Below, one piece after another: positions 27,001 to 36,000 of a stretch of DNA of 64,000 nt. Made by a program: the position numbers. Origin of the DNA: Escherichia coli O127:H6 str. E2348/69 (GTDB lineage Bacteria; Pseudomonadota; Gammaproteobacteria; Enterobacterales; Enterobacteriaceae); NCBI RefSeq assembly GCF_000026545.1, contig NC_011601.1; one strand, given 5' to 3'. Position 1 is the first letter of the stretch. Every line of letters starts with the position of its first letter.

Positions 27001-30000
27001 GCTCTGGCAGAGTGGAGCGCTCCGATTCAGGCGCGTCGTCACTCTACTCGTGTACATAATCCGGCAGTAGAAAAGCGTCTGGCGGCGATCACCGCCCAGG
27101 ACAGTCAGCGTGCGAATGTCTATGAAGTGCGTGCTGAAGCTCAGCGTGCGCGTTTTAAACTGCCCGCGTGGCCGACCACCACGATTGGTTCCTTCCCGCA
27201 AACCACGGAGATTCGTACCCTGCGTCTGGATTTTAAAAAGGGTAATCTCGACGCCAATAACTACCGCACGGGCATTGCGGAACATATCAAGCAGGCCATT
27301 GTTGAGCAGGAACGTTTGGGACTGGATGTGCTGGTACATGGCGAGGCCGAGCGTAATGACATGGTGGAATACTTTGGCGAGCATCTGGATGGCTTTGTCT
27401 TTACGCAAAACGGTTGGGTACAGAGCTACGGTTCCCGCTGCGTGAAGCCACCGATTGTTATTGGTGACGTTAGCCGCCCGGCACCGATTACCGTGGAGTG
27501 GGCAAAATATGCGCAATCCCTGACTGATAAACCGGTGAAAGGGATGTTGACCGGCCCGGTGACTATTCTCTGCTGGTCGTTCCCGCGTGAAGATGTCAGC
27601 CGTGAAACCATCGCCAAACAAATTGCGCTGGCACTGCGTGATGAAGTCGCGGACCTGGAAGCCGCTGGAATTGGCATCATTCAGATTGACGAACCGGCAT
27701 TGCGCGAAGGTTTACCACTGCGTCGCAGCGACTGGGATGCCTATCTCCAGTGGGGCGTGGAGGCTTTCCGTATCAACGCCGCCGTGGCGAAAGATGACAC
27801 ACAAATCCACACTCACATGTGTTACTGCGAGTTCAACGACATCATGGATTCGATTGCGGCGCTGGACGCAGACGTCATCACCATCGAAACCTCGCGTTCC
27901 GACATGGAGTTGCTGGAGTCGTTTGAAGAGTTTGATTATCCAAATGAAATCGGTCCTGGCGTCTATGACATTCACTCGCCAAACGTACCGAGCGTGGAAT
28001 GGATTGAAGCCTTGCTGAAGAAAGCGGCAAAACGCATTCCGGCAGAGCGTCTGTGGGTCAACCCGGACTGTGGCCTGAAAACGCGCGGCTGGCCAGAAAC
28101 CCGCGCGGCACTGGCGAACATGGTGCAGGCGGCGCAGAATTTGCGTCGGGGGTAAAATCCAAACCGGGTGGTAATACCACCCGGTCTTTTCTCATTACAG
28201 CGACGTCTTCCCAGCATACTGCGTAAACCATTCCAGATATCAGTTCATACCCTGTTTAAGAAAATCTTCTTTATTCCCTTCTCATGAAATAAATTTCGTC
28301 ATTTCCGCCATTTTTTCTATCTACCTCTCCATCACATATTAAAAATTACTTGATATCTCTATGTTTTTTAATGAAAAACATATCAACCTATGATCTTTCT
28401 TGTGACTAGCTTCACATTTCATACTGATGCATTGGAATGAAATAAAATTTCATGAGATTTTGTGTTTGAGAAAATTATTTCATGAGGTGTGAAATGGACG
28501 CAAAGCTGTACATCACTGAGATCATCAATGAATTAACCTTCGTTAAGGACTCTATCCGTGAGGATGACTGCACCAAATTGATCGACGCTATTCAGCAAAG
28601 CCAGCGCGTTTTCTGCTATGGCCTGGGACGTGCCGGCTTTTCCATGAAAGCCTTCACCATGCGCCTGATGCATATGGGAAAAGAGGTTTACTTCCTGACG
28701 GAAACCATTACGCCGAACTTTGGGCCTGGCGATCTGTTTATCGTTTCTTCCGCTTCCGGTGAGACAGCACAACTGGTGGCACTGGCGAAAAAAGCACGTC
28801 AGCTTGGCGGCGCTGTGGCGGTGTTAACCACGAATCGACACGCCACTATCACCGAGTTTGTCGATGTCATCGTGCAAATTAATGCCCCTTCCAAAAATCA
28901 AAAAGATTCTGTTTTCCGCTCGGCACAGCCGATGGCGTCGTTGTATGAGCAAGCTTTGCTGGTGATTGCCGATGCATTAGTGATGAAGATGGCTGCTGAA
29001 AGTGGTGCGCCGGAAAGTGAACTGTTTAAGCGCCACGCCAATCTGGAATAGTCGTCGCCGTTATTTGCTCGATACCCTACAGGAGAATAAAAATGAGCAA
29101 AAAAATAACATCCTTGTTTAACTTCAAGAAGTTGCAGAAATTTTCTTCTGCTCTGATGTTACCAATCGCCATTCTTCCGGCGGCGGGTTTGATTTTAGCC
29201 ATCGGGATTTCATTTAACATTGAGCTGCTGGCGAATTGCGGCGGCCTGATTTTCGCCAACCTTCCTTTGCTGTTTTGTGTCGGTATTGTGATTGGCCTGA
29301 CAGGTGATGGTTCTTCTTCACTTTCAGCGATTATCAGCTACATGATCATGAATGCCACGATGGGAACGCAACTTGGCATTACCGCGGAGTCCGTTGCAGC
29401 CAGTAACGGTGACTATGCGATGATCCTCGGGGTACCGACGTTACAAACGGGAGTGTTTGGCGGTTTGATTGTCGCCATCTTTGTTTATCTGCTCTATACC
29501 CGCTTCCACAATATTGAATTGCCTCAGTTTCTTGGTTTCTTCGGTGGAAAACGCTTTGTACCGATTATTACGGCGGTGGCGGCAATTATTGTCGGCTATT
29601 TATTGCCGTGGCTGTGGATACCGGTACAAAAAGGTCTGGCGTCGCTTTCAACGCTGGTGACCAGTGGGCATAACGCGAACTTCGCGGCCTTTATTTACGC
29701 CGTTGGCGAACGTTCGCTGATTCCTTTTGGCCTGCATCATATCTGGAACGTGCCGTTTTATTACAACTTTGGCGACTACATGGCTAAATCCGGGCAACTG
29801 GTGACGGGCGATATTCCGGTGTTCTTTGCCCAATTGCGCGACGGTGTTCCGTTGACGGCGGGGCTGTTTATGACAGGTCGTTTCCCGATCATGATGTTTG
29901 CGTTACCTGCCGCCGCGTTGGCGATGTATCAGGAAGCAAAACCTGAACGTAAGGCGCTGATTAAAGGCCTTTTACTCTCCGGTGCGCTGACCACATTTGT

Positions 30001-33000: not shown

Positions 33001-36000
33001 ATAGAATATGCCGCATTAATTTGCATTTCCGGGCTGACGTGAACAACGGTTTTTAATCCGAGTTGGCTGAATTTATAAGCACCATAAACGGCCAGAGGGT
33101 TTGAATTTCCGGCAGCAAAAAAGAAAATAGTATCGCAATTAGCAAGTAGTTTGAGAATGGACTCAAGTACTTCGGCATTAAAAAATTGCGTTGATTGTAT
33201 TAAATCTTCGGCCTGTTTTTTTAATAAAAATGTGGCCAGCGACGTTATATCGGTAAAATCGGTATTATCAGGATAGCTATTGTCAGGATTAATGACTTCT
33301 TTTGCTAATGCAATTTTTAAATGGTAATAACCCTGATAACCTAATTTCTTACAGGTGCGTACGATAGTCGCTTCACTGGCATGGCTTTTTTCTGATAGTT
33401 CAGTGACACTATAGTTCACGACTTCATGTGCGTGGCTAAGAATATAGTCAGCGACCTTTTTTTCCGCCTGATGCAGTGTAGGGTAATTGCTTTGAATCAG
33501 ACTTTTTACGGTTATGTTATTCATAATTAGTAAATTTCATTCTGACAGAAAGTGCTGATTATAACATAGTTTTCAGGCGTGGATAGGTATGAAAAAATGA
33601 AGGTGTGCAGTGAACGTAATGATTAACAGACCGGTTAATTTTCATGAATTACGTCAACTGCACAAAAATAATTTAAACGGGCGCTCTAATTAAAGCAAGA
33701 CTTATATTTTTATCATTGTATTGTCAATTAAATACAAATCGTGTCATTAATTGCGGGTTTCTTAAATATTCTATGCACCACTGACAGGCTTTGCCCATAC
33801 CATCGGAACGAGCGGCAAGAAATAACTTGGTGGCGTGTTTATGTTCGCGCATTGGCTTTTTAAGCAATTTACCGCTGTTCAATAACGGCAATGCCAGATG
33901 ATGTGGAATATAACCAATACCGACGTTTTGTTCTATTAAGGCGATTGCCGTAGCGAAGTCAGGAACAAAAATGGGTTTTTGTCCTTCCAACAACCAGGCT
34001 TGCATCGGGGGGAAGTTAACGGAGGTATCGCGGATACAAACCGCTGGATAATGACGCAATTCACTGTTTTCTAATGGATGCCGCTTCGCTGCCAGTGGGT
34101 GGAGTGGGCTGACGACAAAATCCCATTCCATTTGTCCGACCGGTTCGCTAATGATGCCTTCACTGCTTGGTACTGCATGAGGAGCACCGTAGACCAGATC
34201 AGCACGCTTACTGTACAGCGCATCCCAGCAGCCGTTGTATACCTCAAGATCTACCGTCAGTGTTGTTGATGTGAATTGCCGTTCAAAATCTCGAATAAAT
34301 GCCACCAGCAAATTACCAGGAATAATATTGTTTACCGCAATTGTCAGTTCACGCTCAATACCATCGTGAATCAGCACTGTGTTGCGCTTTAATGCTTCCA
34401 GATCGCCAAGAATAGTTTTGCTATGTTCGATGAAGTAACTTCCCGCTGGCGATAATTCAATATAGCGTCCCTTACGAATGAACAGTTCAACGCCCAGGCT
34501 CTCTTCCGCTTTCTTGATAGTGTAACTGATGGCGGAAGGGACTTTATTTAACTGCTCGGCTGCGGTGGTAATGCTCTGGTGTCTGGCGACCAGATGAATA
34601 ACACGAAGCGTTTCGTCTGAGATGAACATAAGGCTCCCTGGTCAGTGGTAAAGTGGCTGAATCTCTCCAGATTCAGCCGTAATCATTGCCTGAGTATACC
34701 CAGGAATTAGCGGTGTTGACTTGCCCGACTGAGAATCGCATACGCGATACATGCCACCAGAATCGAGTCTACCGAAGGGATCGTCGTCAGGGTGAATAAG
34801 CCTTTTACGGTCATAAAGCCAACCGCTGCGCCTATGATCCATGCTGCGAATGTCAGCACTTTAATCTGTGACTCCTGGGCTAACACTGACTCTTGATAGC
34901 CATTACGGCGATAAAGGAAAAAGTCAGCGATATAAATTCCGGCAACGGGTGGCGTGGCGATACCCAGGAACAGCAGAAACGGAATAAACCACGCCATAAT
35001 ATCCATACTGCCTACGATGGCGGAAAGGATACCCAGCGCCACGGTAATCTGCCATTTGGGAAAGCGGGTAAGCAGTGTGGAAACCACCAGCGTGCCCTGG
35101 AACATATTGCCCGCGTTACCGGTGACGCAGGCGAAAATCAACAACAGCGCCGCAGGCAGAACCGCACCGAATACCGCCATCGCACCCAGTAAAGATCCCT
35201 GACCACTAATGGCGCTCGGCGTTGCACCCGCCCAGTAGAGCAGAGGGTAGGCAACCAGAAACGTCACGCCTGCGGCAATCAGCGCATGTTTGCGGTTATG
35301 CACAAAACTACCGAAATCAGGCAGTGTGGCAACCAGCACAATAATGGTGCCAACAACGGTGGAAACGGCGACACCTGTATTCATCTCCACAATCGCCGCT
35401 GGTACTGCCACTTCGGTATGGGTTGCCACATAGAGGATGTAACACAGCACCAGCGCGATAACCGGCACGGCAACCTGGGCAATTTTTCCCAGAACGGTAA
35501 AGCCAAATGCCGTAGAGGCGACAAAAATGACACAGCCAGCCGCCACTAACAGTGCCAGTGGAACTTCCAGTCCATGTTGAGCCAGTAAGTCATGTACCGA
35601 ATGACCAAACATATTGGCGGTAACGGCAATCCAGCCGAACAGACTTATCGCCATCAAAATGTTAATGGCGATGGCCCCTTTTTCGCCAAACGAATATTTC
35701 ACAATGCCATACGTTGGCAGGCGGGCTTTTTCTCCCACGCTAATGGTGATGGCTGAAAGTAAGGTCAGAATGACGCCGCCTAACAATACGACGCTAATTA
35801 AACTGCTGCTGGAAAGTTGATTGCCGAGGCTTGAGGATGACAACAGTACAGGTGTGACGGCAATACCCAGCAAAATCATGGCAATACGCAATCCTGATGC
35901 CGTATTCAGATTCTCTTCTTTTTTACGCATAGTATGTTCCCTTTATAAATGCGCGTTACACAGTATGAAAATGCCCGGTGTATTTGCGCCAGCTACCCAG

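Follow-up and report, generated by a model that had tools for sequence, protein, structure and literature searches.

The promoter considered here belongs to a small sugar operon of Escherichia coli O127:H6 E2348/69 and lies in a 64,000-nt stretch of contig NC_011601.1 (hereafter the window), which is 100% identical to the sequence of that strain. The first gene of the operon, hxlB (28494-29051, plus strand, RefSeq start), encodes a SIS enzyme resembling 6-phospho-3-hexuloisomerase (PHI; TIGR03127, 205 bits against a cut-off of 160; Pfam SIS). It is followed on the same strand by a gene for a glucose-family EIIBC protein of the phosphotransferase system (PTS; 29093-30601; TIGR02002, 607.7 bits against a cut-off of 591.8; Pfam PTS_EIIC and PTS_EIIB) and by the transketolase paralogue gene tkt1 (30652-32649; TIGR00232, 1009 bits). 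Convergent with the operon, on the minus strand, lies rpiR (32679-33524), whose product WP_001060027.1 is a MurR/RpiR-family regulator with an HTH_6 and a SIS domain. It is adjoined by a LysR-type gene (33724-34629, minus strand). On the other side, metE (25894-28155) precedes the operon, and its intrinsic terminator (28163-28185, plus strand), found in a terminator scan as a 10-bp stem followed by a T-run, forms the left boundary of the island promoter region.

The hxlB-PTS-tkt1-rpiR-lysR module opens the 16-kb "tkt1 genomic island" known from phylogroup B2 extraintestinal pathogenic E. coli (ExPEC) and avian pathogenic E. coli (APEC), and the island described by Li et al. 2012 is the same DNA, located downstream of metE (PMC3349570). 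It has also been catalogued as GR29 (PMC12928451). Signature-tagged mutagenesis revealed tkt1 as a gene that contributes to fitness in avian and human extraintestinal E. coli, the island marks phylogroup B2, and Tkt1 does not complement TktA (PMC3349570). In our survey, 1133 of the 5426 complete E. coli genomes carried the region. The papers on the island cover the distribution, virulence and phenotype of tkt1 and name its regulators only as "putative"; a promoter, operator or CRP site is described in neither of them (PMC3349570, PMC12928451), and a search of the available papers returned nothing on the regulation of the hxlB-PTS-tkt1 operon.

Between the metE terminator and hxlB the window holds three copies of an imperfect palindrome of the form (c/t)GAAAT-N2/3-ATTTC(a/g), which we call S1, S2 and S3 and which we predict to be operators of the island RpiR protein. 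The distal site S1, CTCATGAAATAAATTTCGTC (28281-28300), is arranged as CTCATGAAAT-AA-ATTTCgtc, with the core GAAAT-AA-ATTTC at 28286-28297 and its centre at -202.5 from the hxlB ATG. The middle site S2, AATGAAATAAAATTTCATGAG (28436-28456, core 28439-28451), is arranged as aATGAAAT-AAA-ATTTCATgag and contains a 15-bp palindrome, TGAAAT-AAA-ATTTCA, in a 6+3+6 form. The proximal site S3, TGAGAAAATTATTTCATGAG (28467-28486, core 28470-28481), has the layout gaGAAAA-TT-ATTTCATGAG, so that the arms of S1 and S3 read GAAAT/GAAAA-N2-ATTTC. S3 abuts the Shine-Dalgarno sequence GAGGTG (28484-28489), which together with the ATG at 28494 makes up the translation start of hxlB (28484-28496, plus strand, from the sequence and the RefSeq start). 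The distance between S2 and S3 is 30-31 bp. With pseudo-palindromic arms of 5-6 bp, a short A/T linker and several copies at one promoter, these sites have the form of RpiR-family operators.

Upstream of S2 the sequence reads as a CRP box with a perfect core, TGTGActagctTCACA (28401-28416), which matches TGTGA-N6-TCACA at 10 of 10 positions. A class II-like CRP-dependent promoter would have its box centred near -41.5 (or -61.5) from the transcription start; here the predicted centre is at -41.5 to -46.5, varying with the -10 candidate that is chosen. As -10 element we infer the hexamer TAAAAT (28443-28448, plus strand), which agrees with TATAAT at five of six positions and lies within S2; S2 probably overlaps the -10 element. 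A scan of the hxlB upstream region for a consensus sigma-70 promoter found none, which is consistent with an activator-dependent promoter and leaves the -10 assignment a tentative one.

The repeats are well set off from the remaining window. All strings quoted in the original prediction were located (tcatgaaataaatttc at 28282-28297, gaaataaaatttcatgag at 28439-28456, tttcatgaggtg at 28478-28489 and ttttcatgaattacg at 33639-33653), and at the hxlB promoter three copies are present that are better than that prediction had described. The 10-mer CTCATGAAAT/ATTTCATGAG has three exact copies in the window, all inside 28281-28486: at 28281-28290 on the plus strand and at 28447-28456 and 28477-28486 on the minus strand, each forming one arm of a GAAAT-N2/3-ATTTC palindrome. 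ATTTCATGA occurs four times against 0.83 expected. TGAAAT-N2-4-ATTTC has three matches against 0.24 expected, only at the hxlB promoter. The shorter word TTTCATGA has eight copies in the window against 3.5 expected; three of them belong to S1-S3, and the five outside this promoter are at chance level. A half-site matrix trained solely on sites from outside E. coli ranked S2 (21.9 bits), S1 (17.9 bits) and S3 (16.1 bits) as the top three matches of the window, the next one reaching 12.9 bits. When the 338-bp hxlB upstream spacer was shuffled with dinucleotides preserved, 10 of 5000 shuffles contained some 10-mer, of whatever sequence, three times, which is a modest value on its own, since this is one region among dozens of spacers. 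The triple 10-mer alone is therefore suggestive, and it becomes decisive only together with the conservation evidence.

These values leave some room for an explanation without a binding protein, in which the repeats would be chance products of AT-rich DNA, a promoter or ribosome-binding site duplicated by slippage, or an RNA element of the leader. The hxlB upstream region is 66% AT, S3 overlaps the Shine-Dalgarno sequence, and the shuffle statistic is only about 0.002. Direct ATTTCATGAG copies also recombine in nature: a 31-bp deletion between them fuses S2 to the Shine-Dalgarno sequence and removes S3 (DETEC-S792, L097 1501-1595, corresponding to window 28447-28486); its junction is covered in only 4 of the ~1113 E. 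coli genomes having the region. For an RNA element, the hxlB leader gave no Rfam match and folded no better than its own shuffles (z = -1.29), and a short upstream reading frame, ATGAGATTTTGTGTTTGA, was rejected because it is not kept in the related locus L003. The palindromic core is moreover maintained across three phyla and on either strand while the flanks diverge, as described in the following, which makes an origin of the repeats without protein binding highly improbable.

The original prediction had proposed a motif search across orthologous loci, and this search returned a footprint of the sites in five enterobacterial lineages. Orthologous loci were retrieved through the RpiR and PHI proteins from Klebsiella (L086-L088), Serratia ficaria (L082, L089), L003 and L092, with identities to E. 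coli of 72-82% for PHI and 68-79% for RpiR. L003 (CACSKA010000003.1) is titled Chryseobacterium sp. 18061, but its gene order equals that of Klebsiella L086 and its promoter is closely similar, and the record is possibly mislabelled or contaminated. All enterobacterial promoters carry two operators spaced by 30-31 bp, with centres near -50 and -19 relative to the PHI start. The site corresponding to S2 is found at -49/-50 in E. coli, Klebsiella, L092 and S. ficaria, and S3 at -19 in all orthologues; in L003 a different PHI start call offsets the positions, with the same spacing to the proximal site. The sequence flanking the operators has diverged among these loci. Read on the opposite strand, S1 shares a stretch of 19 identical nt (ACGAAATTTATTTCATGAG) with the proximal operator of Klebsiella and L003.

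The CRP-like box belongs to the same conserved arrangement. It was found in 6 of 6 enterobacterial promoters, the two operators and the box being shared by E. coli (two island types), Klebsiella, L003, L092 and S. ficaria. The five orthologous boxes match 8-9 of the 10 core positions, and the gap to S2 is 22 nt throughout, apart from 21 nt in S. ficaria. Such a box at a fixed gap to S2 implies catabolite control of the tkt1 operon. Two more distant PHI homologues (L090 and L091, 62-64% identity) belong to tkt-PHI pairs beside LysR or ROK genes and have neither rpiR nor the motif; they are uninformative for this comparison. L092 further contains an operator-like site, CATGAAATGTATTTCCCG (9346-9363, 20.4 bits), inside a second PTS EIIC/IIB gene downstream of PHI-PTS.

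Outside the enterobacteria, RpiR homologues with 42-48% identity are encoded in Enterococcus (L093), Sebaldella (L094) and a further Firmicute (L095), in each case by the last gene of a PHI-split transketolase-PTS-rpiR operon. Perfect palindromes stand upstream of PHI in L093/L094/L095, namely ACGAAATAAATTTCGT, ACGAAATAAAATTTCGT and GGCGAAATAAATTTCGCC (twice). They share the core CGAAAT-AA(A)-ATTTCG and include both spacer lengths, and the palindrome core is kept across three phyla and on either strand. In these loci a clear TTGACA/TATA(C/A)T promoter is directly followed by one operator, which stands after the -10 element and beside the Shine-Dalgarno sequence. Further operators precede the -35 element and are 140-210 bp away from the start codon, at distances similar to that of S1. 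A cre-like sequence, TGTAAACGAAA(A)TAA, overlaps the proximal operator in L093 (about 2335-2350) and L095 (about 2045-2060), which hints at CcpA control in these two loci where the enterobacteria use CRP.

A still wider set comprised 78 loci (L004-L081) around RpiR relatives with 27-41% identity. GAAAw-N2-3-wTTTC occurs 15 times in the 9.5 kb of non-coding DNA directly upstream of the 78 RpiR genes and 31 times in 127 kb of other non-coding DNA of the same loci, a 6.5-fold enrichment (Poisson P=2.5e-8) that may be inflated somewhat, as the upstream DNA is AT-richer (70% vs 65%). This enrichment indicates that the operator class travels with this branch of the RpiR family. A palindrome of the TGAAAw-N-wTTTCA type was seen ~70-250 bp upstream of 15 of the 78 genes, in Neobacillus, Lachnospiraceae, Dictyoglomota, a spirochaete and others, which suggests that the branch shares an operator class and that autoregulation is common in it.

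Which regulator would bind these sites is suggested by the company they keep. RpiR is the sole regulator common to all motif loci, and the sites are assigned to it for this reason. Its gene accompanies PHI-PTS(-tkt) in Klebsiella, S. ficaria, Enterococcus, Sebaldella and L095, and co-occurrence of site and regulator holds for 7 of the 8 distinct PHI promoters, which have rpiR on the same contig in the DNA examined, the exception being L092. The protein itself has an N-terminal HTH_6 domain (PF01418, residues 7-77; 78.3 bits, cut-off 28.3) and a C-terminal phosphosugar-binding SIS domain (PF01380, residues 127-255; 72.5 bits, cut-off 25). It stays below all NCBIfam equivalog cut-offs (score/cut-off: HexR 105/296, PRK11337 102/378, AlsR 94/400, MurR 70/408), and by its sequence is an uncharacterised subfamily of the RpiR family.

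Binding of S1-S3 by another protein, such as the adjacent LysR, the SgrR-like regulator or one of the global regulators Rex, Cra and NagC/Mlc, has some points in its favour. The LysR gene adjoins rpiR in E. coli, PHI of S. ficaria is directly preceded by an SgrR-like gene, L092 has kept its sites with no rpiR nearby, and GAAATAAATTTC occurs within published pneumococcal Rex sites; literature searches with operator strings returned only unrelated matches and Rex sites. However, the LysR gene occurs in E. coli only and is absent from the Klebsiella, S. ficaria and Firmicute loci, and the SgrR-like gene is restricted to Klebsiella, L003 and S. ficaria, with no counterpart in the E. coli island or at the Firmicute loci. 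The enrichment of the motif, moreover, is specific to the DNA upstream of RpiR genes. Rex requires TTGTGAA-N4-TTCACAA, and arm counts gave (C/A/T)GAAAT here rather than GTGAA(A) with flanking TT/AA; E. coli is not known to possess Rex. Cra sites are not known to contain a spacer, and NagC/Mlc sites have the opposite polarity (TTT...AAA). A regulator other than RpiR is thus quite improbable at these sites.

We therefore propose that S1, S2 and S3 are operators of the island RpiR-family regulator and that they would control the hxlB-PTS-tkt1 operon, a reading to which we assign a probability of roughly 0.72. That the PHI-promoter repeats are operators of this operon, plausibly for RpiR, had been suggested before, and the suggestion is strongly supported by the enterobacterial footprint, by the same core in Firmicutes and Fusobacteria and by the enrichment upstream of distant RpiR genes. 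Several points weigh against it. In addition to the modest shuffle statistic and the AT-richness upstream of the distant RpiR genes, part of the conservation of S3 may stem from the ribosome-binding site that it overlaps, and L092 has both operators but no rpiR within 6 kb. S1 is confined to islands of the E2348 type and absent from the UTI89 type. The half-site spacer is 2 or 3 bp between sites, for S3 even between E. coli lineages, which is unusual for a rigid dimer. Finally, a repressor rather than an activator is deduced only from the operator position.

The last point bears on the possibility that the island RpiR binds S1-S3 as an activator or dual regulator, like some proteins of its family. 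In the three promoters of the Gram-positive type an operator-like site just upstream of the -35 element (centres at -86.5 in L093 and -122 in L094) would be compatible with activation, and the E. coli hxlB promoter, having no recognisable -35/-10 pair, needs help. The RpiR-family regulator RccR, moreover, shows opposite ligand effects at different types of site (PMC5489143). Nevertheless, in every lineage the sites with the strongest conservation cover the likely -10 element and stand in the leader behind it, which is the classical position for a repressor, activation in the enterobacteria is already explained by the conserved CRP box, and the characterised analogue MurR is a repressor. We hence regard activation by RpiR as unlikely.

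For the repressor reading, phosphosugar-relieved repression combined with CRP activation, by analogy to MurR-murQP, is most likely. Without inducer, RpiR, probably a tetramer like MurR, would occupy S2 and S3. The spacing of 30-31 bp, about three helical turns, would place both sites on the same face of the DNA. S2 covers the likely -10/start region, S3 is part of the leader beside the Shine-Dalgarno sequence, and RpiR bound there would block transcription. In strains of the E2348 type the distal S1 may add a loop. A phosphosugar produced by the PTS transporter, or the substrate of PHI, would bind to the SIS domain and release the repressor, while cyclic AMP-CRP at the box upstream of S2 would activate transcription. 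With both controls in place, the operon would need the inducer and the absence of glucose. Such a predicted RpiR switch is a standard local repressor-operator arrangement, which is new for the tkt1 operon and not surprising.

The original prediction had extended this scheme to autoregulation, with a fourth copy of the repeat in the rpiR promoter as a further operator, and this part was not supported. The copy upstream of rpiR (33639-33653) shares only TTTCATGA with the hxlB-promoter sites. It does not belong with the PHI-promoter repeats, its 8-mer being a chance-level word, and it was rejected as an operator, with a score of ~0 bits and no conservation in four orthologous loci. Across the whole rpiR-lysR spacer the best site of the operator matrix reached 4.5 bits, against 16-22 bits for S1-S3, and the best scores upstream of rpiR in E. 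coli, L003, L086, L082 and L084 were 0.4-5.4 bits. A half-site ATGAAAT in the rpiR leader (33533-33539) was likewise rejected, as it is not kept in L003, L086 and L084. Instead of an operator, the rpiR upstream region contains an extended -10 element, TGTTATAAT (33558-33566, minus strand), ~35 nt upstream of the rpiR ATG; it is common to E. coli, L003, L086 and L084, while the remaining upstream sequence is unrelated. Since rpiR is convergent with the operon and is read from an extended -10 promoter of its own without an operator, it is probably not autoregulated through the operator motif in enterobacteria. In the Firmicutes and Sebaldella, autoregulation of rpiR would follow trivially from its position within the regulated operon.

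Within E. coli the promoter exists in natural variants. In islands of the UTI89 type (~460 genomes) the distal upstream region is unrelated and lies beside the gene tssD (Hcp of the type VI secretion system; L096 1133-1625, corresponding to window 28186-28500), which in UTI89 is annotated as a pseudogene with an internal stop. S3 of this island type has one extra A (GAAAAATTATTTC), which changes the spacer from 2 to 3 bp. In a plasmid collection no copy of the promoter together with hxlB was found. The distal half of the island is degraded in E2348/69 (window 36362-39041; L001 15162-17581), where an ISEc13 transposase gene (37668-39041) stands between two genes annotated as incomplete pseudogenes, for a hypothetical protein and for an AllG-family oxamate carbamoyltransferase subunit.

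The gene neighbourhoods give some indication of the pathway. In Klebsiella, L003 and S. ficaria (L086 789-6686; L082 731-6692) the PHI-PTS(-tkt)-rpiR module lies beside the SgrR-like regulator, and the same neighbourhood contains genes for a GFO_IDH_MocA oxidoreductase, an AP_endonuc_2 TIM-barrel protein, an alpha/beta hydrolase and a MOFRL protein. In L095 (1-1750) GFO and hydrolase genes directly precede PHI. Judged by these gene contents, the PHI-PTS-rpiR neighbourhood probably represents one sugar pathway, of which the E. coli island has only a part. As a tentative extension, which is possible rather than probable, the GAAAT-N2/3-ATTTC operator and the PHI-transketolase-PTS-RpiR gene set could form a cross-phylum sugar-catabolism regulon in Enterobacteriaceae, Enterococcus, Sebaldella and other Firmicutes. 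Several genomes add a GFO-type oxidoreductase, a TIM-barrel isomerase, a hydrolase and a MOFRL kinase to this gene set. On this reading, a sugar of the 3-keto or hexulose type may serve as substrate, which would receive its phosphate on entry and then pass through isomerisation by PHI and processing by Tkt1.

If this cross-phylum reading is true, the virulence-associated tkt1 of ExPEC would be an inducible enzyme of a sugar pathway and not a spare transketolase, and the operators would give a reporter for inducer discovery. The CRP box and the three predicted operators together predict that the operon is on when glucose is missing and a specific phosphosugar is present. The promoter would be a simple handle, in reporter assays or electrophoretic mobility shift assays, for screening inducers and hence for finding the sugar of the tkt1 operon. 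For the poorly characterised RpiR family one more operator motif would be added, with a small regulon.

Among known systems, MurR-murQP of E. coli K-12 is the closest functional analogue of the tkt1-operon circuit. There, murQP encodes a SIS enzyme and a PTS EIIBC, and MurR binds as a tetramer to two neighbouring repeats and represses murQP until N-acetylmuramic acid 6-phosphate binds (PMC9177960). In both systems a regulator with HTH_6 and SIS domains adjoins an operon for a SIS sugar-phosphate enzyme and a glucose-family PTS EIIBC, two neighbouring inverted repeats lie in the promoter, and the expected inducer is a phosphosugar from the transporter. The operator sequences differ, however, and the tkt1 operon includes a transketolase. 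While murR is divergent and autoregulated, the island rpiR is convergent and has no operator. Co-activation by CRP has reportedly been seen for murQP too.

In the architecture of the sites, the island promoter resembles the targets of two RpiR-family regulators of Pseudomonas, RccR, a 15-bp TGTAGT-N3-ACTACA site in which an extra linker base is tolerated, and HexR, TTGT-N7-8-ACAA (PMC5489143). Like the RccR site, S2 is a pseudo-palindrome with 6-bp arms starting with TG and a 3-bp linker, and as for RccR and HexR, one extra linker base appears to be tolerated and several sites per promoter are possible. The arms are GAAAT here in contrast to GTAGT/GTAAT. RccR and HexR serve central carbon metabolism with 2-keto-3-deoxy-6-phosphogluconate as the ligand, whereas the island RpiR would be a local regulator of an accessory PTS operon.

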